Source: an uncultured bacterium
GTDB lineage: Bacteria > Krumholzibacteriota > Krumholzibacteriia > LZORAL124-64-63
Direction: 5' to 3'
DNA: 64,000 bases
Assembly (NCBI GenBank): GCA_963732385.1
Contig: CAVSZB010000006.1
Location: 82,357 to 146,356, forward strand
A program made the position numbers and the translations under genes. The notes below the pieces were generated by a model. That model did not search any database. It was not told where the DNA came from and saw only the letters and a list, made by a program, of their open reading frames with translations. Shown here in pieces: positions 6,466-22,485 of this stretch (positions are counted from its first letter, which is position 1; each line of letters starts with the position of its first letter).

Positions 6466-6485
<20 letters not shown>
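5025..6485 (-). CDS. actC: Alternative complex III quinol-binding subunit ActC (NrfD family)
   Basis: [58 protein letters not shown]. Confidence 0.95.
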
Positions 6486-10196
<3,711 letters not shown>

Positions 10197-10232
10197 AGAA
10201 ATCCTCCGCTCAGAATTTTGCCTGGCCGCTCC

Positions 10233-10556
10233 TCAAACGCGGAAGGACGTTCCGCAGCCGCAGGATCGCTTCGCGTTCGGGTTGAGGAACTTGAAACCGC
10301 CTCCCAGCATCGCCCGCGAGAAATCGACCGTCAGCCCGTTGAGATAGGGCGCCGATTCCTCGTCACAGGCGACCCGCAGGTCCCCCAACTCGAAAACACG
10401 GTCATTCTCGCCCGCCTCAGGCGCAAAGTCCATGCTGTATTGCAGGCCGGAACAGCCGCCGGCCTCCACGCCGAAGCGCACCAGCGCGTCCGGCTGGCTC
10501 TGCTCGGCCAGGAGCCGCTTGACCTCGGCCACGGCCGCGGGGGTCAGTTCTATCAT
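10233..10556 (-). CDS. iscA: A-type Fe-S cluster carrier (IscA/HesB family)
   Basis: GGCSGLQY and NPNAKRSCGCGTSF motifs. Confidence 0.92.
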   Translation of the reverse strand: MIELTPAAVAEVKRLLAEQSQPDALVRFGVEAGGCSGLQYSMDFAPEAGENDRVFELGDLRVACDEESAPYLNGLTVDFSRAMLGGGFKFLNPNAKRSCGCGTSFRV

Positions 10557-10756: not shown

Positions 10757-12859
10757 ATGTCCGACCGCGCCACCCCCCTCACCCCTGCGCGGATCCGCCG
10801 CGATGGCAATGCCCTGCAGCGCGAAACCTCGCTCTACCTGCGTCAGCACGCCCACAATCCGCTCGACTGGCGGCCGTGGGGTGACGAGGCGCTCGAGCGC
10901 GCGCGGGTGGGCCGGCTGCCGATCTTCCTGTCGATCGGCTACGCGTCGTGCCACTGGTGCCATGTCATGGAGCGCGAGGTGTTCGAGAACGACGAAGTGG
11001 CGGCGTACCTGAACGCGCATTTCGTCTGCATCAAGGTCGACCGCGAGGAACGTCCCGACCTCGACGCCGTCTACATGGACGCCGTCCAGGGGATGACCGG
11101 CGCGGGCGGCTGGCCGCTGTCGGTCTTCCTGACCGCCGACGCGCAGCCGATCTACGGCGGCACGTACTTCCCGGCGCCGCAGTTCCTCGAACTGGCGCGC
11201 CGGGTGCGCGAAGTGTACGTGACGCGGACCGGCGAGGTGGAGGAGCAGGCTGCCGCCGTCGCGGCGCGCCTGCTGGCGGGCCCGACCTTCGCCGACGAAG
11301 CGGCCGGCGGCGTCATCGACGCCGAGCTGATCGACGCCGTCGCCGCGCGCGCGGTCGCGCTGTTCGACCCGGAGTGGGGCGGTTTCACCGGCCCGGCGAA
11401 GTTTCCTGTCCCGCCGCGCTGGCAGTTCCTGCTGCACCACCACCGCCGCACCGGCGACGTGCGGTCGGCCCGCCTGCTTGGCCTGACCCTCACCACGATG
11501 GCCTCGGGCGGCATCTACGACCACGTCGGCGGCGGCTTCCACCGCTACGCCACCGATGCGGCGTGGCTCGTGCCGCACTTCGAGAAGATGCTCTACGACA
11601 ACGCCCTCCTGGCGAGCCTCTACCTCGAGGCCGGCCTGGTCCTGCAGCAGCCGCTGCTGCTGGCGGTCGCCCGCGACACGCTCGCCTTCCTGGTGCGGGA
11701 GATGAGCGGCCCCGAAGGGGGCTTCTACGCCAGCTTCGATGCCGACAGTGGCGGCCTGGAGGGGAGCTACTACGTCTGGACGCCCGACGACCTCTCCCTC
11801 GTGGCCGGACCGGAGGACGGGCCGGCGCTGGCCGGCCTGCTCGGCGTGACCGCAGCCGGCAACTTCGCCGACGGCGCGAGCGTGCTGACCCGCCGCGCCG
11901 ACCTCGCCGAACTGGCCGCGCGCCACGGTCGCGACGAGGCGGAGATCGCCGCCCTCTTCAACGAATATCGCGATGAACTGCGCGACTATCGCGACCGTCG
12001 CGAAGGTCCCACCCTCGACACCAAGGTGATCACCGCCTGGAACGGCCTGGCCATCTCCGCCCTGGCCCAGGCGTACGGCGCCACCGGCGAGCCGGCCTGG
12101 CGCATCGCCGCCGAGCGCGCCGCCGACTGGCTCGAACAGGCCCACCGCCGCCCCGACGGCCGCCTCCTGCGTGCCGGCACCGACGGCCCCGCCACCGGCG
12201 ACGGCATTCTCGAAGACTACGCCTTCCTCGCCGTCGGCCTGCTCGACCTCTACCAGGCCACCGGCGATGAGTCGCGCCTGCGTCGCGCCCTCGAGCTGAT
12301 CGACATCACCCGGCGCGACTTCGCCGACCCCGCCGGAGGCTGCTGGCTGACCGCCGCCGCCGCCGAAGTCCCCCTCGGCCGCAAGACCGAGCTGTTCGAC
12401 AGCGTGACCCCCTCCGGCAATTCCGCCTTCCTCCAGGCCCTGCTGCGCGCCGCCGCCCTGACCGGCCGCGATGAGTACCGGGAAGAGGCCGCCCGCACGA
12501 TTGCGCGCTACGCCGTCATCATGGAAAAAGCGGGGCTGGAGATGGCCTGGTGGTTCGATGCGGCTTTGCGGCTGAACGGACCGTTCTATGACGTGGTGGT
12601 GGCCGGCGATCCCGCCGACGCGGCGACGCGCGCGCTGACCGCCACGGTCACCCGCCTGCTGCCGCCGCATGTGACGCTGGCGCGGGTGTCGGCGGCGGGA
12701 GCGTCTGCGGATCTCGCTGCCCTGCTGCCCGCCGCGACGGGCAAGGTCGCGCGGGATGGCGGGCCGTGCGCCTACGTGTGCGAGCACGGCGCCTGCCTCG
12801 AACCGGCCACGGACCCGGACGCGTTGCGCGAGCAGTTGCTGGCGGGGTGGGCGAGGTAG
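10757..12859 (+). CDS. Thioredoxin-domain / six-hairpin protein (YyaL/SPATA20 family)
   Basis: SLYLRQHAHNP, SIGYASCHWCHVME, KVDREERPD, GGGFHRY, PHFEKMLYDNA. Confidence 0.93.
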   Translation: MSDRATPLTPARIRRDGNALQRETSLYLRQHAHNPLDWRPWGDEALERARVGRLPIFLSIGYASCHWCHVMEREVFENDEVAAYLNAHFVCIKVDREERPDLDAVYMDAVQGMTGAGGWPLSVFLTADAQPIYGGTYFPAPQFLELARRVREVYVTRTGEVEEQAAAVAARLLAGPTFADEAAGGVIDAELIDAVAARAVALFDPEWGGFTGPAKFPVPPRWQFLLHHHRRTGDVRSARLLGLTLTTMASGGIYDHVGGGFHRYATDAAWLVPHFEKMLYDNALLASLYLEAGLVLQQPLLLAVARDTLAFLVREMSGPEGGFYASFDADSGGLEGSYYVWTPDDLSLVAGPEDGPALAGLLGVTAAGNFADGASVLTRRADLAELAARHGRDEAEIAALFNEYRDELRDYRDRREGPTLDTKVITAWNGLAISALAQAYGATGEPAWRIAAERAADWLEQAHRRPDGRLLRAGTDGPATGDGILEDYAFLAVGLLDLYQATGDESRLRRALELIDITRRDFADPAGGCWLTAAAAEVPLGRKTELFDSVTPSGNSAFLQALLRAAALTGRDEYREEAARTIARYAVIMEKAGLEMAWWFDAALRLNGPFYDVVVAGDPADAATRALTATVTRLLPPHVTLARVSAAGASADLAALLPAATGKVARDGGPCAYVCEHGACLEPATDPDALREQLLAGWAR
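12294..12360 (+). repeat. Direct repeat copy 1 (internal yyaL segment duplicated at 19067-19133)
   Basis: 67-bp match to 19067-19133 with 2 mismatches by eye. Confidence 0.9.
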
Positions 12860-13236
12860 GGGGGGCGTTCGCTGTCGCAACGCGGTGTGAAATCCTCCCG
12901 GTCGACCGGGGCCGGTTGTTACGCCCAGGCACCGCCCTTCTCGACGCGCAGGTCCCAGGCGGGGTACAATGCAAGGAGGCGGCGGGATGCGTCAGGCGAC
13001 CGCCAGGGGCGAGGCGCCTGTTCGTCCTCCCCGCCATGCGTTCAGCCGACGAGTCGGGGTGCACGCCATGTACGGGCTGGGGATGGGAAGCGGGGGTTTG
13101 CATGGGGACGCACAGTTCGCGCGGTGGCGGCCCGGTTGCCCGTGGCGTCGATTCGCCTGCGTCTCGGCGGGCACGCGAGCCATGGAGCGCGGGCCCATGA
13201 ACGCTGCGGACAGGCGGCCGGCGCCGGAGGAACCGG

Positions 13237-15039
13237 ATGTCGGGCGCTGACCTCGCGGATCGCGGCCCCGGTCCGGCCCCTCCATCCCGCCGCACCAGTC
13301 TCGGCCGGTTGCTGCGCTATCTGAAGCCGCACTGGCGTCGGCAGGTCGTCACGCTGGGCTTCCTGGTCTCCGGAACTGGCGTCTCGCTGCTGGTCCCGCT
13401 GCTGATCAGGCGGATCGTGGACGTGGCGCTGCCCGCGCGGGACGGGGCGCAGCTCCTGCAACTCGTGGGCATGATGGCGGGCATCCATCTGCTGTCCGCC
13501 CTGCTGCTGCTCGCCACCGATTACTACTTCCTGCGCGTGAGCAACGCCATCGTGCTCGATCTGCGACGCGACATGCACGACCACCTGCTGCGTCTGTCGC
13601 TCGATTATTTCGAGGGGAACAAGGCCGGCCAGACGATGGCGCGGATCATGGGCGACGTGGACTCCGTGCAGATGCTGACCACGAACGCCTTCCTGATGCT
13701 GCTCACCGACTGCTTCTCCGTCCTGCTGATGCTGGGATTCATGCTGTACCTGAGCTGGCCCCTGACGCTGGTGAGCCTGGTGACGCTCGCGTTGCTGGTG
13801 TTGATCACGCGGATCTTCAGCCATCGTGTGCTGGCGTCGGCGCGGCTGAACCGCGAGAAGTACGCGGCGATTTCCGAGGACCTGCAGGAGACGATCGCGG
13901 GCGTGAAGGAGATCAAGGTGTTCGCGCGCGAACCGCTGCGCAGCGCGTTCTTCGCCGGGCGCCTGGCGGAATTCGCCCGGGCGAGCATCCGGCTCGGGAT
14001 GTGGGGCTCGGCGTCCCGGCTGCTGAGCGTGCTCGTGATTTCGGTCGGTCCCGTGCTCGTCTATTACTACGGCGGCCGGAGCGTGATCGGTGGCACGGCC
14101 ACCATCGGCCTGCTCGTGGCCTTCGTCATCTACCTCGAGCGGATGTACGAGTCGCTGCATCGCCTCTCGTACCTGAACATCCAGGTCCAGTCGGCGCTGG
14201 GGGCGGTGGAGAGGATCTTCTCGCTGCTGGACGCGCCGCCGACCGTCCTGGATTCGCCGACCGCGACGGACCTGCCCGCTCCGCGGGGCGAGATCGAGCT
14301 GCAGGGAGTGACCTTCCGGTACGTCCCGGACCGGCCGCCCGCCCTGAAGGACGCCAGCCTGCGCGTGTGCGCGGGCGAACGGGTGGCTCTCGTGGGACGC
14401 AGCGGTTCGGGCAAGAGCACGGTGGCCAATCTCGTCTGCCGCTTCCACGACGCGCAGGAGGGGCGCGTCCTGCTGGACGGGCGGGATGTGCGTAACCTGC
14501 GCCTGGCCGATCTGCGCGCGGTGATCGGCATCGTGCCGCAGGAGGCGTTCTTCTTCCATGCCAGCGTCGCCGAGAATCTGCGCTTCGCCCGGCCGGAGGC
14601 GACGCAGGCGGAGCTCGAGGCCGCCACGCGCCAGGCCGACGCCCACGATTTCATTCTCGCCATGCCTGCCGGCTACGACACGATCATCGGCGAGCGCGGC
14701 AGCCGGCTCAGCGGGGGACAGCGCCAGCGTCTCGCCATAGCGCGCGTCCTGCTGCGGGACCCCCGGATCGTGATCCTCGACGAAGCCACCTCCGCACTGG
14801 ACGCCGAGACCGAACGGCAGGTCAGGGTGGCGATGGGGCGCCTCGCGCTCGGCCGTACCACCCTCGTCATCTCGCACCGTCTCTCCACCGTCGCCGACGC
14901 CGACCGGATCCTCGTGCTGGACGATGGCGAGATCGTCGAGGCGGGCGATCATCGCACCCTGATGGCGCAGGGAGGCGTGTACAGGCGGCTCTGCGATCAG
15001 CAGGCGCAGGGGCAAGCCGTCGTCGGCGAAGATTCCTGA
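13237..15039 (+). CDS. ABC exporter, fused permease/ATPase (MsbA-like; no C39 peptidase domain evident)
   Basis: N-terminal TM domain; Walker A GRSGSGKST, LSGGQRQR, ILDEATSALD. Confidence 0.93.
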   Translation: MSGADLADRGPGPAPPSRRTSLGRLLRYLKPHWRRQVVTLGFLVSGTGVSLLVPLLIRRIVDVALPARDGAQLLQLVGMMAGIHLLSALLLLATDYYFLRVSNAIVLDLRRDMHDHLLRLSLDYFEGNKAGQTMARIMGDVDSVQMLTTNAFLMLLTDCFSVLLMLGFMLYLSWPLTLVSLVTLALLVLITRIFSHRVLASARLNREKYAAISEDLQETIAGVKEIKVFAREPLRSAFFAGRLAEFARASIRLGMWGSASRLLSVLVISVGPVLVYYYGGRSVIGGTATIGLLVAFVIYLERMYESLHRLSYLNIQVQSALGAVERIFSLLDAPPTVLDSPTATDLPAPRGEIELQGVTFRYVPDRPPALKDASLRVCAGERVALVGRSGSGKSTVANLVCRFHDAQEGRVLLDGRDVRNLRLADLRAVIGIVPQEAFFFHASVAENLRFARPEATQAELEAATRQADAHDFILAMPAGYDTIIGERGSRLSGGQRQRLAIARVLLRDPRIVILDEATSALDAETERQVRVAMGRLALGRTTLVISHRLSTVADADRILVLDDGEIVEAGDHRTLMAQGGVYRRLCDQQAQGQAVVGEDS

Positions 15040-15057
15040 CGAATGGCGAACCGGCGG

Positions 15058-16092
15058 CTACGTCTTCAGCGCGGTGCGATACAGGCAGAGCGGGACGGCA
15101 GCCCTGATGTCGCCGGTGTAGGCCAGCGCCGAGCCGCGGCAGCCGCCGCGGCAGTTGGGGTAGTTCTCGCAGCGGAGGCAGCGCCCGGCGATCTCGTCGC
15201 GCGCGAAATCAGCCATGACCGGCATGGCGGGGTCGGACCAGAGATCGGCGATGCGCGTCTGGCGGGTGTTGCCGACCAGAAAGTCCGGGTGGACCAGGGC
15301 TGTGCACGGGTAGACGTCGCCGTTGGCCCGCAGATAGAGAGTGCGCGTCCCCGCGCTGCACTTGTGGAAGCCGAAATCCGGTGGCACAGGACCGAACCCG
15401 ACGTCGAAGGAAATCAGGATGGACGGATCTTTTTGAGCCTGCTGGATGAAGGCGAGCAGGTCGGTCGCCTCCTCGGCGATGAGCAGACGCTGTCTGATCT
15501 GTTCCTGCTGGCCGCGGCCGGCCGGCGTGAAGCAGGAGAACCTGATACTGTCCACCCCCTCCCGTTTGCCCAGCGCGATCAGTTCGCCTGCGTCCGCAAG
15601 GTTTTCACGGCCCACCACGGAGGCCATGATCACGCGGGCGCCCTGGCTCTTCGCCGCGCGAATGCCCTGCAGGACAGCCTGGAACTCCGCGTCGCTCGCA
15701 CCGCGGATACGCCGGTTCAACTCCGGCGTGGAGCCGTCGAGGCTGACCTGGATGGTGCGGCAGCCGGCCTGGATCAGGCCTCGCGTCCGTTCGGGATCGA
15801 GCAGCACGCCGTTGGTCGTGATCGTGGAGTGGATCCCCTGCGCCCAGGCGTGCGCCGCCAGTTCCTCCAGGTCGCGCCGCAGGAGCGGCTCGCCGCCTGT
15901 CCAGCTGATCGTCCCGGCCCCCAGAGCGGCCAGGTCGTCGATGAGCCCTCGGCACTCGTCGGTGCCCATCTCGTCGCGCGGACGTTCAGCGGTGGCGCTG
16001 TAGCAGTGGACGCAGCGCAGGTTGCACAGGTTGGTGATTTCCCAGCCGACGATTTCCGGCTTTTGCGAACGGACGGCCTCGGGATCTGACAT
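15058..16092 (-). CDS. Radical SAM/SPASM enzyme (PqqE/MftC/NirJ-like), putative second maturase
   Basis: CNLRCVHC, TGGEPLL; SPASM CSAG..GDVYPC..CLRC..CRGGCR..C. Confidence 0.9.
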   Translation of the reverse strand: MSDPEAVRSQKPEIVGWEITNLCNLRCVHCYSATAERPRDEMGTDECRGLIDDLAALGAGTISWTGGEPLLRRDLEELAAHAWAQGIHSTITTNGVLLDPERTRGLIQAGCRTIQVSLDGSTPELNRRIRGASDAEFQAVLQGIRAAKSQGARVIMASVVGRENLADAGELIALGKREGVDSIRFSCFTPAGRGQQEQIRQRLLIAEEATDLLAFIQQAQKDPSILISFDVGFGPVPPDFGFHKCSAGTRTLYLRANGDVYPCTALVHPDFLVGNTRQTRIADLWSDPAMPVMADFARDEIAGRCLRCENYPNCRGGCRGSALAYTGDIRAAVPLCLYRTALKT

Positions 16093-16128
16093 GTCAGGTT
16101 CCTCGTCTGCGCGGGGTGATGGGCGCGG

Positions 16129-17454
16129 CTATGTCTGTGCGGTCATGGTTGCGCGGTAGGCGAGTTCCAGCATGTCCCCGAGATTGTACTTCCAGGGGGG
16201 GCACACGCCCTGGCTCGCGTCCGGCTGGGCCAGTCCCCGGGCCGGGCAGCCGCCCATGCAGACCGGAGCGTGGGCGCAGGAGCGGCAGCCGCTCAACGCC
16301 AGAGGTTGCCAGGCTTGGTAAGCCTCGCAGTTCGCCTGTTGCGCGGCGCTCAGCGTCTCGGAGAAGACGCTGCCGATCGACCGGTCGGCGTCCAGGGACA
16401 GCTCCTCCCAGCACTTGAACAGGTATCCATTGGGTCCCACGGAATAGTAGCCGTCGGCGATGGCGCCGCACATCCCGCCAGATGCGATTTGGGGACGGTC
16501 GATCTTTTCGATGCCATTGGCCGCGAGTTGCCCGTACAGCCGCACCAGGATGCGGGCGAATTCTGCGTTGTCATGGCAGCGGTCACGGATGTCGGCGCAG
16601 ACCGCCCCGGACGGGAAGATTGGCGCGAAGGTCACCCTGACCTTGTCGAGCACGCCGCGCTCCTGCAGAACGGTCACGGCCGCCGGTGCGCAATCCACGT
16701 TGTCCTTGTCGATGTTGATGCGCACGTCGATGTCCAGGATCCCGGCCGCCGCACAGAGATTGTCGATGATGCGCGCGAACGTTCCCTGCCCGTTGTGCAG
16801 CTTGCGACGCCGGTCATGCATCTCCTGGGAGCCGTCGAGCGTGATCTGGGCGCGCGTGATCCCCAACTCGCGCAGGCGCTGCGCCATGGCGACATCCAGC
16901 AGATATCCGTTCGTGATGATCTGGCCGGGATGCAGGTGCACCTGGTGTTTCTCGGCCAGTTCGAGGAACCGTTGCTGCAGCCTTTCGATCAGGGGGAAGC
17001 AGAGCGTCGGCTCACCGCCGAACCAGCAGAGGCGCAGGCCGTCGGCCCGGTACAGATGGCGATCGGTGAACGCCAGGAGCGCGGTCTGGGTCTCGTCGCT
17101 CATGCGGACGCTGGACCGGGATTCGAAGCAGTAGTCGCAGCCGAAGTTGCAGGCCAGCGTGGGCGCGATCGTCAGCGTGAGGACGGACCCCTCCAGCCTG
17201 TCCGTGCGGGCCCTCATTTCCAGGGCCGTTCGCTGATCGACTGCGTCCGGGATGAGAAAGCCGCCGTCGCGCAGGCACTGGAAATATTCCGCGGCCTGGC
17301 CCGCAAACGTCGCGTTGGGATTCGCCAGCACGTCCTGCACGAGCGGATGATTCTCGCCCTCGATTTCGGCGATGGCTCCCGAATAGGAGTTGTAGCCGAG
17401 CACGATCCGGCCATCGAGGATCGGAAAGAAGAAATTGAAGGGGGACGGTTTCAT
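16129..17454 (-). CDS. Radical SAM/SPASM peptide maturase with N-terminal RRE-like extension
   Basis: About 90-aa N-terminal extension (GYNSYSGAI..LRDGGFLI), CNFGCDYC, WFGGEP; SPASM CGA..GYLFKC..CRSC..CMGGCP..C. Confidence 0.9.
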   Translation of the reverse strand: MKPSPFNFFFPILDGRIVLGYNSYSGAIAEIEGENHPLVQDVLANPNATFAGQAAEYFQCLRDGGFLIPDAVDQRTALEMRARTDRLEGSVLTLTIAPTLACNFGCDYCFESRSSVRMSDETQTALLAFTDRHLYRADGLRLCWFGGEPTLCFPLIERLQQRFLELAEKHQVHLHPGQIITNGYLLDVAMAQRLRELGITRAQITLDGSQEMHDRRRKLHNGQGTFARIIDNLCAAAGILDIDVRINIDKDNVDCAPAAVTVLQERGVLDKVRVTFAPIFPSGAVCADIRDRCHDNAEFARILVRLYGQLAANGIEKIDRPQIASGGMCGAIADGYYSVGPNGYLFKCWEELSLDADRSIGSVFSETLSAAQQANCEAYQAWQPLALSGCRSCAHAPVCMGGCPARGLAQPDASQGVCPPWKYNLGDMLELAYRATMTAQT

Positions 17455-17506
17455 GCTTTCCTCTGCGGAAGTGAAGCCGGCAGGCCGGCCGCAGGCGACA
17501 ACAAAG

Positions 17507-17543
17507 ACCCGTGCGCCAACCGGCACGCGGTCGGCGCACGGGT
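17507..17543 (-). terminator. 16-bp stem-loop between precursor and first maturase (attenuator or mRNA-stabilising hairpin)
   Basis: ACCCGTGCGCCAACCG (17507-22) / CGGTCGGCGCACGGGT (17528-43); the single mismatch is a G-U pair on the - strand. Confidence 0.65.
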
Positions 17544-17563
17544 GAACGGCGGGCTACCGCATC

Positions 17564-17662
17564 CTAACGGTAGGTCCCGCAGAGAATCCGCAGCGGCGAC
17601 TTGTACGTGCAGGGCATCGGCTTGGACACGAGGCCAAAGCCAGGCAGCGAGATGAGCTTCAT
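17564..17662 (-). CDS. Putative RiPP precursor peptide, 32 aa: MKLISLPGFGLVSKPMPCTYKSPLRILCGTYR
   Basis: Translated by hand; AAAAGGAG RBS 8 nt upstream; directly upstream of and co-oriented with two rSAM/SPASM genes; below the ORF-track size cutoff. Confidence 0.75.
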   Translation of the reverse strand: MKLISLPGFGLVSKPMPCTYKSPLRILCGTYR

Positions 17663-17847
17663 TGCATGGTCTCCTTTTCGCGGAAGTGAAATGTTGTGGC
17701 GGACGAACGCGCGGCCTATTGGCAGCCGCCGTCCATCCTGCCCCTGCTGCGCGCGTGCCTTCGTCCCGAGCCGCCAGGATACGGATCATGGGACAAAAAT
17801 AATCAGGAAACGACACACGCGGAGTCCTGATTTCTTCATTAAGTAAT

Positions 17848-17877
17848 ATTGTATTTTCCCTTCCGATTGACTGTCAA
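17848..17877 (-). promoter_or_regulatory. Sigma70-like promoter facing precursor/rSAM operon
   Basis: - strand TTGACA-N18-TACAAT in an AT-rich patch; the -35 lies in the palindrome ATTGAC-T-GTCAAT (17866-17878). Confidence 0.6.
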
Positions 17878-17958
17878 TATCAAAACTTGTCGGTTCATTC
17901 CCGGGGCCTTGCTTCGGATGTGCGCAAGAGCGGCCCCGGCATATCTGGAGGCATCGCC

Positions 17959-18069
17959 ATGACACATCGCTCCGGAACTGTCGGTATCCTGATCCTGGCG
18001 CTGGTCGGCGCGTTGATCGCGCTGGCGGTGCTGACGACGAGTCGAGCGGGGCGGGCCGGAATATGCTAG
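17959..18069 (+). CDS. Small hydrophobic peptide (36 aa, single TM-like)
   Basis: GGAGG RBS at 17947-51; MTHRSGTVGILILALVGALIALAVLTTSRAGRAGIC. Confidence 0.4.
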   Translation: MTHRSGTVGILILALVGALIALAVLTTSRAGRAGIC

Positions 18070-18260
18070 AATCGATGCTCCTCGCACGAGGGCCTGGCCG
18101 GAGCCGGAGGGGCGTCGCCCCGCCCGCGCACCGGAGTCTGGCCCATCAACGCTGACCTGATCCTCGCGCTTTCACCTGCCGGCGTGCGGCGGGGGCTGCC
18201 CGGTCGTGGTCCCGACGGGCGGCCGCTGCCGTGGGCGCCGGCGTCACCAGGGGGATCCCG

Positions 18261-19067
18261 ATGAGACGAACCTGCCGGTTCACCGCCGCCGTCTGGCCGC
18301 TGCTGATCACCATCCTGCTGCTCGCCCCGGGCTGCAGCTCCGATCGTCCGCTCGATCCGGCCGCAGCGCTGCCGGCGGCCGACGGGAGCTCCACGACGTT
18401 GTCGGCGACTCCGGTCGTACCCGTCGATACCCTGACGTTCGTCGAGACCTTCGACAACAAGAGCAACGTGGGGGACTGGTCCTACTTCACGACCCACGAT
18501 GCGACCATCGAGATGGACGGCGGCAATCCGGGCTGGTACCTGCACGATGACTCCGTCGTCTCGTTCGCCCCCCATCCCGGATCCGGTCTGGGCGTGACCT
18601 CGGTCTTTGCCGGGAACTACCGGGAGCAGCGGGTCCTCAGCGTGGGCATCGACCTGCGGAGCTTCGATTACGACCTGAACGTCTCGTCCCGCTATCTCAC
18701 GCTCCTGGTGATGAATGATGGCGGCACGCCCGACGACGCGAGCGATGACCGGGGGGCGTACTTCATCGGTCCCGTCAAGGTTCCGTCGAAGTATGTGGAG
18801 ATGAAGTCCGGCGCCGACAAGAACGCGGCCGGCTGGGTCTCCTACGCATTCGAGATCGCGTCGCAGTCCAACGCGTATCCGGCGGGGTGGACGGCGTTCA
18901 GCTATGCCACCGGGGCCTCGGCCAAGTCGCGCGATTCCTGGCGACAGCTGATGGAGAGCGTTTCCTACATCCAGTTCTGGTACGGCGATCCGACGCAGTA
19001 CTACCTCCTGGACAGCTATGACCTGGGGCTGGACAACCCCCGGATCAGCCGGGAAGTGGCCAGGTAA
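18261..19067 (+). CDS. Hypothetical lipoprotein, beta-rich
   Basis: Signal peptide ending APGC; coding-like codon usage. Confidence 0.7.
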   Translation: MRRTCRFTAAVWPLLITILLLAPGCSSDRPLDPAAALPAADGSSTTLSATPVVPVDTLTFVETFDNKSNVGDWSYFTTHDATIEMDGGNPGWYLHDDSVVSFAPHPGSGLGVTSVFAGNYREQRVLSVGIDLRSFDYDLNVSSRYLTLLVMNDGGTPDDASDDRGAYFIGPVKVPSKYVEMKSGADKNAAGWVSYAFEIASQSNAYPAGWTAFSYATGASAKSRDSWRQLMESVSYIQFWYGDPTQYYLLDSYDLGLDNPRISREVAR

Positions 19068-19147
19068 GCTGATCGACATCGCCCGGCGCGACTTCGCCGA
19101 CCCCGCCGGCGGCTGCTGGCTGACCGCCGCCGCTCTGACCGGCCGCG
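19067..19147 (+). repeat. Direct repeat copy 2: internally deleted yyaL remnant
   Basis: 19067-19133 matches 12294-12360; 19128-19147 matches 12451-12470 (1 mismatch). Confidence 0.88.
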
Positions 19148-19191
19148 GCGGCCCCATCCGGAGCCGCCGCCGTCTCTTTGACCGGCCGGGC

Positions 19192-22100
19192 CTATTGCGG
19201 CCGCTTCACCCGCACCGGGTCTGCCGGCTGCGGCAGGATCTTCACCTCCTGCGTCGGCAGGAGGTCGAGGGCGGCCTTCACGGCGGCCTCGAGCTGCGCG
19301 TCACGGCCGGCGGCCGCGTGCTGCGGGGTCTGTTCCACCTCGAGGTCGGGCGGGATTCCCTGGCCCTCGACCGCCCAGTTCCCGTCGGTGTCGTAGAAGC
19401 CGCCGCGCGGGGCGGTCATGAAGCCGCCGTCGACGAGATCGGGCACATCCCAGATGCCGACGAGACCGCCCCAGGTCCGCGTGCCGACGAGCGGCCCGAG
19501 GCCCAGCTTGCGGAACATGTACGGCAACATGTCGCCGCCGGAGCCGGCCATCTCGTTGATGATCATCACCTTGGGGCCCCAGATGGCGGCATTGGGTGCG
19601 GTGAAGGGCTGCTGCGCGCCCACGGGGTTGCTGAAGAAGCCGAGCAGGCGGCGTCCCATGACGTCCACCATGTAGTCCGCGATCGAGCCGCCGTGGTTGA
19701 AGCGCTCGTCGATGATGGCGCCCTGCTTGTCCTGCTGCGCGAAGTAGTAACGGGTGAAATTCGTGTAGCCGCCCTCGCCGGTGTCGGGCACCCAGACGTA
19801 GGCCAGCCGGCCGCCCGACAGCTCGTCCACCCTGCGGCGGTTGCCCTCGATCCAGGCGCGCTGGCGCAGCGCCGTCTCGCTGGCCACCGGCACCACGGTC
19901 ACCTGGCGGGCGTCCTTGTGTTCGGGCTTCGCGTTGAGCGTGAGGACGGTCTGGCGGTCAGCGGTGCGGTCGAAGAGGCTGTACACGCTCACGGCGGACG
20001 TGAGCTCGACCCCGTTGACGGCCAGCAGGTAGTCGCCCTCGCGCGCGTCGATGCCCGGGCCGCTCAGCGGGGCGCGCAGCTGCGGGTTCCAGTTCTCGCC
20101 GGCGTAGATCCGGCGGAAGCGGAAGCGGCCGTTGGCCACCTCGAAGTCGCAGCCGAGCAGGCCGACCGGCACCTTTTCGACCTCCGGCTCGTCGCCGCCG
20201 CCGGTGAACGAGTGGCCGATGCAGGTCTCGCCGCCCAGGATGTCGAGCAGGTAGGTGAGGTCGGCGCGGTGCCGCACGCTGTCCACCCACGGCGCGTAGG
20301 CGCGCCAGGCCCAGTCCAGGTCGAGGCCGTGGACGTTCTTCACGTAGAAGTAGTCGCGCTGGAAGCGCCACGCCTCGCGGAAAATCTGCTTCCACTCGGC
20401 CGCCGGGTCCACCTTGAGGCGCAGGCCGGCCAGGTTGAGCGCGCCTTCACCCGGCTTCGGCTCGCCGGAGGCGTCGGCGAGGCAGTACTTCTTGCCGTCG
20501 GGGCTGTAGAGCAGCTTCTTGCCGTCGGCCGAGAGCCGGAAGCCCGTCACGCCCTCGATCAGCTGCTTCGCCTCGCGCTTCTTCAGGTCGTAGCGGTGCA
20601 GCGTCAGCCCCTCCTGATTGGGCACCTCCTCCGTATAGAATAAGAATCCCGCCTCGCCCGCCGTCAGATCGGCGAAACGGCGCGCAGGCACGTCGAGGGC
20701 GACGATGCGCTGGTCGAGGCCGTCGAAGTCGATCCTCACCCTGACCGGTTCCGCAGCTTTGGCGTCCTCGCCGTCGTTCCCGTCGCCCTTCCTGTCGTGC
20801 TTCGCCGCGTCCTTCTTTCCGTCCTTCCCGTCCTTCGCCTGGTCGGAGGCCGGTTCCTCATCGTCGCTCTCGGGCTTCAGGGGCGATGGCTCGTCCTTCG
20901 CCAGCACGGCGAGGTAGATCGAGCGGTTCAACGGCTGGTTGAAGGAGCTCATGTCGAGCCAGCCGACGTTCAGGCCGTAGTCGGTGCTGGCCAAAAACGC
21001 CAGGTATTTGCCGGAGGCGTCCCACGCGGGGTGGAGCGCGTCGGAGAGGCCGTCGGTGATGCGCGTGGACCGGCCGCTGTCGAGAGAGTGGACGAAGACC
21101 GCGTTGAACTGGTTGGGCAGGCGGCGGCTGTAGGCGAGCCAGCGCGAATCGGGCGACCAGGCCGGGGCGATGAACCGGTCGGGCGGTGCGAAACCCTCGT
21201 CGTCGATGCGCGTCAGCTTGCCGGTGGCGACCTCCACGAACCACAGCGCGCGGTTGGCGTCGCCGAAGGCGAGGCAGCGTGAATCCGGCGACCAGCGCGG
21301 CGTATAGAAGAATGTCGGGTCGGGGATCGGGATGACCCGCTTCCCGTTGCCGAACTGGTCGGCGATCACCAGCTGGTACTCGCCGCCCGCGTCCGAGAAC
21401 CACGATACCGAGCGGCCATCGGGCGACCACGCGGGGGCGCGGTCGGCCGCCCCGGGATCGGCCGAGAGGTTGCGCGCGTCGCCCTTCTCGGCGGGCACGG
21501 TGAAGATCTCGCCGCGCGCCTCGAACACGGCCCGCTTGCCCGCGGGGGAAAGGGCGAAGTCGGTGATCAGCTTGGCGGCGTCGACCCAGTGCGGCCGTGC
21601 CCAGGGGAAGTCGCCGTGCAGCGTCACCGGCAGCCGGCGCGGTTCTGAGCCTGCGGCGTCGAGCGCGTAGAGCCAGCCGCCGTTCTCGAACACGAGGCGG
21701 CCGGCGCCCGCCGCGAGGCGCTTGCAATCGAACTCCTTGAAGTGCGTTCGCTGCCGCAGCTCCTGCGTGACGGTGTCGTACGACCAGACGTTGTTGGCGA
21801 AGTCACGGTCGCTCAGGAAGAAGACCGTATCGCCGAGCCAGGCGGGCGAAACGTCGTTGCTCCCCTCCCAGGGCAGCTTCGTCACCGCGAGCGACGCGAG
21901 ATCGACGATGCGGATCGGCTGGGCCTGCCCGCCGCGGTAGTTGCGCCATTCCGTCTCCCAGGGGGAGACCATCCGGTAGGCGATGCGGCCGCCGTCGGGC
22001 GCGTAGGCCCCCTCGGAAACGCGCGGGATCGGCAGCGGCTCGGGCAGGCCGCCCCCCTCGAGCGCGACCGTCCACAGCTTCGGCTCCGGCCGGGGCACGC

Positions 22101-22485
22101 AGTCCCGGCCCGAGGCGAAGAGGACGCGCCTGCCGTCCACGGTCCAGCCGCAAACGACGTCGTCGCCGGGGTGCCAGGTCAGCCGTCGCGGCTCGCCGCC
22201 GTCGACACCGATGACGTAGACGTCGGCGTTGCCGTCGTACTCGCCGGTGAACGCGATCAGCCGGCCGTCCGGCGAGAAGCGCGGATCGGTCTCGGCGCCG
22301 GGAAACGTGGTCAGGCGGCGCGCCTCGCCGCCGTCGCGCCCCACGATCCAGATGTCGTCGGCGTGGACGAAGGCGACCTGCGTAGCGCTCACGTCGGGCT
22401 GGCGCAGCAGGCGCGCCTCCCCGGCGGCGGGCGGCGAGCCGGGAACCAGGGCGAACGGCAGCAGGAACAAGAGCGCGCATCTCAT
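19192..22485 (-). CDS. Tricorn-like S41 protease (PD40 propellers, PDZ, catalytic domain)
   Basis: Signal peptide; PxFSPDG/PAWSPD repeats; DERFNHGG, AGSGGD, GTRTWGG. Confidence 0.93.
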   Translation of the reverse strand: MRCALLFLLPFALVPGSPPAAGEARLLRQPDVSATQVAFVHADDIWIVGRDGGEARRLTTFPGAETDPRFSPDGRLIAFTGEYDGNADVYVIGVDGGEPRRLTWHPGDDVVCGWTVDGRRVLFASGRDCVPRPEPKLWTVALEGGGLPEPLPIPRVSEGAYAPDGGRIAYRMVSPWETEWRNYRGGQAQPIRIVDLASLAVTKLPWEGSNDVSPAWLGDTVFFLSDRDFANNVWSYDTVTQELRQRTHFKEFDCKRLAAGAGRLVFENGGWLYALDAAGSEPRRLPVTLHGDFPWARPHWVDAAKLITDFALSPAGKRAVFEARGEIFTVPAEKGDARNLSADPGAADRAPAWSPDGRSVSWFSDAGGEYQLVIADQFGNGKRVIPIPDPTFFYTPRWSPDSRCLAFGDANRALWFVEVATGKLTRIDDEGFAPPDRFIAPAWSPDSRWLAYSRRLPNQFNAVFVHSLDSGRSTRITDGLSDALHPAWDASGKYLAFLASTDYGLNVGWLDMSSFNQPLNRSIYLAVLAKDEPSPLKPESDDEEPASDQAKDGKDGKKDAAKHDRKGDGNDGEDAKAAEPVRVRIDFDGLDQRIVALDVPARRFADLTAGEAGFLFYTEEVPNQEGLTLHRYDLKKREAKQLIEGVTGFRLSADGKKLLYSPDGKKYCLADASGEPKPGEGALNLAGLRLKVDPAAEWKQIFREAWRFQRDYFYVKNVHGLDLDWAWRAYAPWVDSVRHRADLTYLLDILGGETCIGHSFTGGGDEPEVEKVPVGLLGCDFEVANGRFRFRRIYAGENWNPQLRAPLSGPGIDAREGDYLLAVNGVELTSAVSVYSLFDRTADRQTVLTLNAKPEHKDARQVTVVPVASETALRQRAWIEGNRRRVDELSGGRLAYVWVPDTGEGGYTNFTRYYFAQQDKQGAIIDERFNHGGSIADYMVDVMGRRLLGFFSNPVGAQQPFTAPNAAIWGPKVMIINEMAGSGGDMLPYMFRKLGLGPLVGTRTWGGLVGIWDVPDLVDGGFMTAPRGGFYDTDGNWAVEGQGIPPDLEVEQTPQHAAAGRDAQLEAAVKAALDLLPTQEVKILPQPADPVRVKRPQ

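Follow-up and report, generated by a model that had tools for sequence, protein, structure and literature searches.

The 64,000-nt stretch of DNA studied here (the window) carries, at 13237..17877, a gene for a 32-residue peptide followed on the - strand by genes for two different radical S-adenosylmethionine (rSAM) enzymes with SPASM domains, rSAM1 and rSAM2. Within this unit, only a convergent ABC (ATP-binding cassette) exporter is read in the opposite direction. Our proposal, to which we give a probability of about one half, is that the peptide and the two enzymes form a minimal cassette for a peptide that is ribosomally synthesized and modified after translation (RiPP), matured in the four steps set out below. 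The rSAM cassette works like a ranthipeptide pathway plus a second tailoring enzyme, and it is outside every curated family tested. A preliminary description, made from the sequence of this DNA, had suggested an undescribed RiPP-type system with two different rSAM/SPASM enzymes and one short peptide. This suggestion holds, since the enzymes travel together and no model cut-off is reached, and all the parts listed there (promoter-like site, short open reading frame [ORF], ribosome binding site [RBS], hairpin, rSAM1, rSAM2, and ABC exporter) were found (Table 1).

Conservation of the cassette

To retrieve related loci, 49 rSAM1 homologues out of the 120 listed were aligned and the alignment served as query; the best 80 were kept of 488 and of 458, and the set comprises 78 genome and 80 metagenome loci. 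The 71 loci with both enzymes include near-identical ones. A conserved peptide next to homologous enzyme pairs, named as a check in the preliminary description, was found at 64 of these 71 loci, 60 by an iterated hidden Markov model (HMM) and four more by a relaxed rule; of the seven loci without a precursor call, four are truncated and three unexplained. When 117 non-redundant rSAM1 proteins were placed in a tree, the ones paired with rSAM2 formed one clade of 57 rows (Shimodaira-Hasegawa-like approximate likelihood ratio test [SH-aLRT] 94, by a quick method), 54 with rSAM2 and three too short to tell. The lone "R2" label outside the clade (locus L163) is a splicease-like fragment. In the reverse test, rSAM1 lies at most 1.5 kb upstream of rSAM2 at 32 of 33 loci, many of them in genomes already seen, and is 1649 nt away at the 33rd. 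Patristic distances for 47 rSAM1/rSAM2 pairs are correlated (r 0.77), and of the 25 supported splits a single one conflicts; such a correlation between sequence trees shows joint inheritance, not function.

The precursor genes lie ahead of rSAM1 in the sub-clade of the window and between both enzymes in other sub-clades, in up to five copies; no further copies were found in the genome of the window. No other neighboring gene family occurs at more than 8 of 72 loci, and no transporter or protease that could serve leader removal or export recurs around the family loci. One larger cluster of neighbors was discarded as the antisense frame of rSAM1 and no real family. rSAM2 is present in 49 of the 285 genomes of Candidatus Zixiibacteriota (the phylum of genome G208) and in 2 of the 208 genomes of the window's own phylum. 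The window rSAM1 nests among sequences titled Zixibacteria in the unrooted tree, which suggests that the window cassette was gained horizontally. At L018, L020, and L098, two tandem rSAM1 paralogues are followed by rSAM2, giving three rSAM genes accompanied by one to five precursor genes.

Precursor peptides

The window peptide has a leader of approximately residues 1-14 and a core with C18-x-x-K21, L24-R-I26-L27, and C28-x-x-Y31. Family precursors are 27-45 amino acids (aa) long, share the leader consensus M-[KR]-[FLIY]-[IV]-x-x-P, and have their first Cys at position 14-20 in 62 of 64 cases. The 32-aa ORF is more than a chance ORF because homologous peptides stand beside orthologous enzyme pairs and because of the pattern of codon changes: in 14 close precursor-gene pairs, 74 codon differences are synonymous versus 47 non-synonymous, and 91 changes fall on codon position 3 versus 35 and 25 on positions 1 and 2. 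The window gene and its nearest relative, a single comparison, differ by 7 synonymous and 9 non-synonymous changes, with no synonymous excess. On the strength of this conservation, the precursor gene is almost certainly real. It has no NCBIfam or Pfam match; the preliminary description had not recognized it as PqqA, MftA, SCIFF, or another known class. The C-(G)-T-Y-[K/R] motif that was expected to be conserved, by comparison, is confined to the window's own peptide among 64 non-redundant precursors.

Two other rules describe the family. First, the residue at Cys+3 bears a β-CH2 in 135 of 143 cases, against a shuffled mean of 53% and 68% in the top of 2000 shuffles. The residues at this position are Y (40), K (36), F (15), L (10), N (10), R (8), D (6), and M (6), with Gly in 1 of the 143 and P, S, T, and C never. 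This rule was no part of the precursor selection criteria, and it was confirmed 12/12 in six previously unseen peptides. The window peptide obeys it twice (C18-T-Y-K21 and C28-G-T-Y31). In addition, the tail after the Ile-x-Cys motif is never shorter than three residues (21 cases) and is exactly three residues long in 11 of the 21. Exactly two Cys occur in 49 of 64 precursors, and the spacing of adjacent Cys ranges from 1 to 21; a fixed Cys-x9-Cys ring was rejected as a family rule, spacing 10 being found in just 20 of 82 adjacent pairs.

Second, an Ile motif of the I-[ILS]-[PC] type is present in 63 of 64 precursors, a biased count. In an unbiased sample of ORFs chosen by leader alone it was seen in 26 of 28 (counted by eye, related genomes included), and of 47 peptides that stand next to rSAM1 relatives with no rSAM2, 2 have it. 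An aromatic-x-Ile triad is present in 65 of 70 precursors of the family, compared with a mean of 22.7 and a maximum of 36 in shuffles; the aromatic residue is F (38), Y (24), H (7), or W (3). Ile serves as the Cys+3 acceptor in 0 of 91 motifs, and a direct Cys-Ile link was rejected, as the distance varies from 5 to 8 and Ile is never at Cys+3.

rSAM1 as the candidate thioether synthase

The model of rSAM1 has an N-terminal three-strand/three-helix domain, and its top fold match is CteB, aligned over residues 4-436 including the RiPP recognition element (RRE) (Z 27.1, root-mean-square deviation 4.0, 400 aligned residues). The RRE-like N-terminus proposed earlier thus stands by fold; by sequence it does not, as rSAM1 has no RRE or PqqD family match. 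An RRE-bearing rSAM/SPASM maturase beside a Cys-containing precursor, one of the ranthipeptide criteria, is hence what is found here, with the RRE assigned by fold and not by HMM. The highest NCBIfam scores are 270.1 bits for TIGR04463 (cut-off 525), 248.9 for Clo7bot TIGR04334 (cut-off 600), and 181 for CefB (cut-off 600); the clade also takes in DynA-, TigE-, and FlmE-type enzymes at lower scores.

Seven SPASM Cys, C329/C348/C403 for auxiliary cluster I (AuxI) and C390/C393/C399/C418 for AuxII, are invariant in 60/60 sequences. According to the available text on CrpC of Methanococcus voltae, a member of the TIGR04463 family (2026; PMC13692751), that enzyme has C333/C352/C403 in AuxI and C390/C393/C399/C422 in AuxII, needed no second rSAM enzyme to modify its substrate in vitro, and installs thioethers, read as ranthionines, at CAGM, CAVD, and CPLV, with the Cys before the acceptor. 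rSAM1 is like CrpC in its RRE-rSAM-SPASM layout, in the spacing of the seven SPASM Cys, and in four-residue motifs of the precursor with the Cys ahead of the acceptor, predicted in the case of rSAM1. By contrast, CrpA, the CrpC substrate, is a 28.8-kDa repeat protein with D, M, and V acceptors, while the family described here has peptides of 27-45 aa with presumed Y, K, F, and N acceptors, a second rSAM enzyme, and the Ile motif (comparison limited to the available text of PMC13692751). Relatives of rSAM1 without rSAM2 still accompany Cys-rich peptides (47 peptides at 26 loci). Collectively, peptide rule and enzyme comparison suggest that rSAM1 probably joins each Cys to the side chain at i+3 as a thioether.

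A likeness of rSAM1 to TigE through Tyr320 (53/60; Arg in the window) was dropped because HMMER aligns the Tyr elsewhere. The strict GYW motif of the cyclopropyl synthases TvgB and TigE, as given in the available text of PMC10878394, is absent from both enzymes (0 of 62 rSAM1 and 0 of 58 rSAM2 proteins), and this class was rejected.

Other rSAM1 relatives define further groups. At L003, L005, L007, L050, L055, L057, L058, and L060, a relative without rSAM2 belongs to a third family, with up to eight opposite-strand precursors that have a C-x-x-C-x-E-[DN]-P core. Distant relatives at L064 and L065 (Thermus), L124, L127, and L129 are found with short Cys/Asn/Gly-rich precursors; cultured Thermus species would offer a tractable host for studying the Cys+3 rule.

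rSAM2 and its exchangeable position

rSAM2 scores 173 bits for MftC (cut-off 265), 169 for AhbC (650), 169 for AhbD (500), 146.8 for StsB (625), 112 for WgkB (650), and 78 for TIGR04103; the best 25 of 82 matches do not include the models for AmcB, GrrM, and YhhB. Placement in the heme-biosynthesis or sulfatase-maturase clades had been raised as a counter-argument to a RiPP system. Neither enzyme reaches those cut-offs, nor those of MftC or PqqE: the heme enzymes AhbC/AhbD/NirJ give 149-169 bits against cut-offs of 500-650, with no recurring heme-pathway neighbors, and the anaerobic sulfatase maturase scores are 70.5 and 77.4 bits (cut-off 349). The ESM Atlas holds generic rSAM names only, and automatic names include "AdoMet-dependent heme synthase" and "MftC".

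The model of rSAM2 (pLDDT, the predicted local distance difference test, 95) has no N-terminal extension of the RRE type, and its top folds, SuiB, anSME, and SkfB, lie within 1 Z of each other. The two enzymes are approximately 30% identical over 115 residues, and the SPASM Cys of rSAM2 likewise number seven, a count that would allow an open site. The rSAM2 family is marked by R184-F-C186-G-F in strand beta-6, by D230-x-x-F-G-P-x-P-P ahead of the SPASM domain, and by an invariant H243. Wider relatives (P0243, P0245, P0246, P0257, P0259) are often double-rSAM fusions that carry a TIGR04133-like or B12-binding rSAM domain.

A sister clade of rSAM1 has a different RRE-less partner, with 256 bits on TIGR04103 (cut-off 725), a model that we take to be the PlpX family; 13 further loci have it at 55-68% identity. 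This splicease-like enzyme is approximately 30% identical to rSAM2. Its Cys-rich peptides carry XYG in 16/16 cases (nine loci), mostly some 6-7 residues past the last Cys, and XYG is the splicease site in the available text of PMC11414181. Partner enzyme and tail motif therefore change together, because the sister cassettes have a splicease-like partner and, at a similar distance from the last Cys, XYG in place of the aromatic-x-Ile triad. This pairing and the co-occurrence of rSAM2 with the Ile motif incline us to the reading that rSAM2 acts at the Ile motif. It is possible that the sister cassettes represent a thioether-plus-keto-amide hybrid RiPP family. They are found at L186 (G093:C5, ~232000-237000), L083, L086, L087, L089, L147, L149, L153, L154, L155, L157, L158, L168, and L169; an ABC exporter is next in L186, and protein P0272 appears to be a fusion of both sister enzymes.

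Predicted rSAM1-rSAM2 complex

A three-chain prediction (rSAM1, rSAM2, and peptide), in which rSAM2 alone was scored, gave 0.84 versus 0.01 for the best control, with our own alignments and a set-up outside the calibration, in which 116 of 157 solved pairs, but 2 of 215 mismatched ones, attained the score mark. Between runs at least 79% of the contacts are the same, and the partner pLDDT is at least 85. The predicted interface places rSAM1 62-88, the end of the RRE and the linker helix, against rSAM2 237-240, 309-313, and 338-344. P237, P238, and F/Y240 at this interface are kept in 52, 54, and 52 of 56 rSAM2 sequences, and docking would explain the conserved P-P-x-[YF] loop. The peptide chain, which was not scored, makes no confident contact with rSAM2 in the model. 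The prediction favors, if not strongly, docking of rSAM2 on the RRE end and linker helix of rSAM1.

Model of maturation and alternatives

We envisage maturation in four steps. A strong promoter and RBS would drive synthesis of the precursor, and the stem-loop would probably keep its mRNA in excess. The RRE of rSAM1 would then bind the short leader, and the enzyme would, with good probability, link each Cys sulfur to the i+3 side chain, likely at a non-alpha carbon; in the window, the product would have Cys18-Lys21 and Cys28-Tyr31 thioethers (-4 Da). Next, the RRE-less rSAM2 would dock as predicted, so that one RRE serves both enzymes. Finally, rSAM2 would act on the hydrophobic-x-Ile motif, which lies either between the rings or past them. 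As for the reaction, a C-C bond that ties the aromatic ring to the Ile two residues on is the likeliest single candidate, tentative as it is; the precedent is ItfD, which joins Trp(i) to Ile(i+2), Trp C7 to Ile Cδ (as summarized in the available text of PMC11002830). Since the window peptide has Leu at the aromatic position, its rSAM2 would either be limited to Ile or be left without a substrate. With similar reservation, rSAM2 might found an rSAM subfamily for Ile in aromatic-x-Ile, whether it makes a Phe/Tyr/His-Ile cross-link or epimerizes Ile as a SPASM enzyme unrelated to EpeE. It would be a plug-in on the RRE and linker of a thioether synthase, in a second slot that is exchangeable, as with the splicease-like enzyme and XYG.

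If the model is true, this sequence-defined three-gene system would make thioethers to Tyr and Lys side chains and perform a new Ile-directed radical reaction. An RRE-less enzyme that borrows the RRE of its partner would help to combine RiPP modifications, and with one RRE a modular two-enzyme assembly line could yield thioether-plus-cyclophane or thioether-plus-keto-amide hybrids. The window copy, with its aromatic-free peptide and an rSAM2 with two departures, would be a test case for separating cross-link from epimerase.

Several observations weigh against this model. Every rSAM1 score is far below its cut-off (best 270 of 525 bits), and its catalytic-proximity residues (positions as in PMC10288494) F,F,I,T,W,E equal those of CteB (F,F,T,S,H,Q) at 2 of 6 positions. 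Two extra conserved Cys of rSAM1, C286 (60/60) and C293 (59/60), lie in a low-pLDDT loop; the three AuxI Cys are as in CrpC and may leave an open site, though these two could add a further ligand. In CrpC itself the acceptor carbons are not fully fixed (available text of PMC13692751). The 63/64 count of the Ile motif is inflated because the seeding required an Ile/Leu motif, and the aromatic-x-Ile triad is missing, with Leu at the aromatic position, from the window peptide (L24-R-I26), its nearest relative L091, and L100. The window rSAM2 departs at two nearly invariant positions, G63S and C186S with Cys at 187; the Ser-Cys variant is not a sequencing error because a second database sequence has it as well. 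The pairing of rSAM2 with the Ile motif is a single evolutionary event, because all carriers form one clade, and likewise for the sister pairing; the motif could be kept for the activity of the product, with no enzyme involved. As regards the complex, besides the uncalibrated set-up, the score may owe something to similarity with PqqD-PqqE or with structures in which RRE and rSAM are fused. Covariation at the interface is weak (45 paired sequences; mean z 0.4, reached by ~5% of random sets), and 1 of the 25 top covarying pairs falls in it.

Two alternatives survive about equally well, and both appear unlikely to us. In one, the proteins are two subunits with one chemistry, as in thuricin CD: the complex would make thioethers only, one subunit would chiefly bind the leader or activate, rSAM2 could even be the catalyst, and the Ile motif would be unmodified and kept for function. 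The predicted heterodimer fits this arrangement, which would also explain why rSAM2 is kept with the aromatic-free window peptide. TrnC binds TrnD in a 1:1 complex, and of the two it is TrnC alone whose radical chemistry is essential (available text of PMC12093266). With its seven SPASM Cys and 147 bits for StsB, rSAM2 moreover has three of six proximity residues in common with that enzyme (Y,T,T,S,T,S/A versus Y,T,I,S,K,L), but it is without the StsB Lys/Leu pair, substitution of which inactivated StsB (available text of PMC10288494). Against a single chemistry stand also the Cys-rich peptides kept by rSAM1 relatives that have no rSAM2, the in vitro activity of CrpC alone, and the sister partner that changes with the tail motif.

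In the other, a sub-case of the fourth step, rSAM2 is an isoleucine epimerase that makes D-allo-Ile in a mass-neutral reaction, with the beta-6 Cys as H donor and the aromatic residue as a replaceable anchor. The near invariance of Ile, together with the tolerance of Leu at -2, agrees with this and fits every member including the window, and as a reaction of the family it ranks second to the cross-link. The beta-6 Cys186 is kept in 55 of 56 rSAM2 sequences, and EpeE epimerizes Ile and Val with a Cys donor (available text of PMC13012085). However, the window enzyme and the wider relatives have Ser at this position, the EpeE fold matches rSAM2 at Z ~20 against 26-28 for SuiB, anSME, SkfB, and CteB, and a cross-link accounts better for the register shifts in which aromatic-x-Ile is kept. 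The beta-6 position also aligns with I194 of MoaA, which we take to pack against SAM, unlike Cys223 of EpeE, presumably placed across the substrate.

It is less probable still that roles or linkages differ, in that rSAM1 makes sactionine (S-Cα) or C-C links, or that the Cys are not thioether donors and instead form disulfides or metal ligands while both enzymes modify other residues. Two Cys in 49 of 64 precursors would suit a disulfide too, DynA-, TigE-, and FlmE-type enzymes belong to the rSAM1 clade, and sequence cannot separate an α from a β or γ linkage. A disulfide, however, predicts neither the Cys+3 rule nor the minimum three-residue tail, and the Cys-Cys spacing is 1-21, while an α-linkage would admit the Gly, Ala, Ser, and Thr acceptors that are nearly absent.

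Finally, that these are cofactor-biosynthesis enzymes (AhbC/D, NirJ, MftC, or anSME type) beside an incidental short ORF is hardly credible, for although the best rSAM2 scores (MftC 173, AhbC/AhbD ~169), the automatic names, and a cytochrome c operon 5 kb off (our own ORF reading) point that way, the scores are far below 265, 650, and 500, no neighbor family exceeds 8 of 72 loci, the precursors are conserved in up to five copies whose position shifts with the clade, and same-genus genomes keep the cytochrome region yet are without the enzymes at the site.

Comparison with known systems

rSAM1 resembles the Clo7bot, CteB, and PapB systems in its 249 bits on TIGR04334, its CteB fold, the short leader, and the tandem precursors. 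It differs in that the cut-off of 600 is not reached, that 0 of 6 family precursors hit TIGR04333 (31 bits), the window peptide having no match to this model, and that Clo7bot, CteB, and PapB are single-enzyme systems. PapB reportedly acts on C-x3-D.

Thuricin CD likewise has two rSAM/SPASM enzymes for one precursor, with a heterodimer that is shown there and predicted here. Unlike the present pair, which are distant enzymes with a single RRE, TrnC and TrnD are both sactisynthases with touching RRE regions (available text of PMC12093266 for both points). In bicyclostreptin biosynthesis, HghB and HghC are two rSAM enzymes that perform different chemistry in order on one peptide; that system differs in its stand-alone RRE HghD, the lack of Cys, and quorum-sensing control in streptococci. 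With ItfD and the triceptide synthases the common point is that an aromatic(i)-x-Ile(i+2) triad may be the substrate, although the window peptide has none. The family aromatic is F, Y, or H far more often than W, and here there is no YcaO, C39 exporter, or TonB receptor (for both systems, as far as covered in the available text of PMC11002830).

The spliceases (PlpX with PlpY) are alike in that the enzyme has no RRE and depends for its activation on a partner or helix (available text of PMC11414181). In contrast, rSAM2 stays at 78 bits on TIGR04103, and its precursors are without XYG. The MftC- or splicease-type Tyr chemistry considered in the preliminary description is not borne out: YG occurs in 2 of 64 precursors, not including the window peptide, and a C-terminal Tyr in 5 of 64. 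MftC was rejected on its 173 of 265 bits and on the required Val-Tyr end (available text of PMC10288494). Also rejected for rSAM2 was an StsB-type sactisynthase, given the 146.8 of 625 bits, the missing Lys/Leu, and Gly at Cys+3 in 1 of 143 cases versus the Cys-Gly hairpin precursor.

A description of the family was not found in the literature; the supplements of PMC10288494 (PDF) and PMC13692751 and the JACS 2022 atlas (Clark and Seyedsayamdost) could include one. Family-related terms are absent from the spreadsheet supplement of PMC10288494, which may give accessions only, and Zixibacteria are unmentioned in the related literature that turned up.

Layout of the locus

The features of the unit are collected in Table 1.

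Table 1. Features of the cassette and the adjoining exporter gene (window coordinates)
Feature	Position	Strand	Basis or remark
Sigma-70-type promoter-like site, TTGACA-18-TACAAT	17848..17877	-	11/12 matches; ~215 nt before the precursor start
RBS AAAAGGAG and spacer	17663..17678	-	AAAAGGAG ends 8 nt ahead of the precursor ATG
Precursor gene, 32 aa	17564..17662	-	Conservation; without NCBIfam or Pfam family
16-bp stem-loop 3′ of the precursor gene	17507..17543	-	z -3.6; 0/200 shuffles equally stable
rSAM1, RRE-rSAM-SPASM, 441 aa, CrpC (TIGR04463)/Clo7bot-like	16129..17454	-	NCBIfam scores, fold, SPASM Cys
rSAM2, RRE-less rSAM-SPASM, 344 aa, no curated family	15058..16092	-	NCBIfam scores, fold
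MsbA-like ABC exporter without peptidase domain	13237..15039	+	ABC_membrane and ABC_tran domains only

The promoter-like site putatively drives the precursor unit. Two such sites occur in 12-19 kb of the window versus a shuffle mean of 0.4, and TTGACA stands 199-293 nt ahead of the first precursor in 14 of the 19 upstream-type loci examined. Alignment of 14 of the leaders of approximately 200 nt revealed no sequence in common; all 14 have an AAGG-type site, most precursors having been seeded on a strong RBS. The gap between rSAM1 and rSAM2 is 36 nt.

Stems of at least 8 bp follow 77 of 84 precursor genes versus 93 of 207 coding control windows, and a pattern drawn from the stems recurs after 25 of 85 genes versus 35 of 7612 background windows. 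The core is GC-rich and conserved family-wide. Compensatory changes number 76 cells versus 34 shuffled (24 copies), for core pairs chosen by the pattern. Neither stem nor leader has an Rfam match. The stem-loop is probably an mRNA stabilizer or partial terminator that keeps the precursor in excess.

Exporter and genomic context

The preliminary description had placed the ABC exporter in the core of the system. An ABC match was found at 1 of 71 related two-enzyme loci (1 of the 43 with at least 2.5 kb downstream) and the exporter is at most an accessory that may serve the window copy; export of the window peptide by this protein is conceivable rather than expected. Its gene has its own RBS and a weak promoter-like site, and its stop lies 18 nt from that of rSAM2. 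In Candidatus Zixiibacteriota, orthologs at 39% identity occur in 5 of 285 genomes, none of them an rSAM2-bearing genome. The sole close relative among 91 family genomes (61%) is in G103, beside another rSAM gene and two Cys/Pro-rich peptides. This locus (L182:3569-8208, G103:C7) is an rSAM/SPASM cluster of no assigned kind; along with the ABC exporter closest to that of the window it holds the two Cys/Pro-rich precursors and a 354-aa protein without NCBIfam family.

Like the G103 neighborhood, the same-genus genome G096 (62% complete) speaks for a local role: one flank follows the other there, and the exporter is gone together with the enzymes, as window 12865-18050 is missing except for a 42-nt piece at the junction that is identical to the ABC gene; G097 (same genus, 92% complete) has other genes at the site. 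Window 12294-12360 and 19067-19133 form a 67-nt direct repeat (97%) of sequence internal to the DUF255/thioredoxin gene, and window 19085-19153 is absent in G096. The repeat and the 42-nt piece could come from templated repair or be an assembly effect. The gene at 18231-19067 (+), for a lipoprotein-like secreted protein, is not part of the cassette because it is present in G096 (96% DNA identity). Farther out, window 6466-10556 (-) and 19192-22485 (-) hold what we take to be an alternative complex III-like operon, presumably with a multiheme cytochrome c and a molybdopterin-like Fe-S subunit. Putative genes for an IscA/ErpA-type protein and for a protease of the tricorn-like kind lie there as well. 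All these genes are resident in the same-genus genomes.

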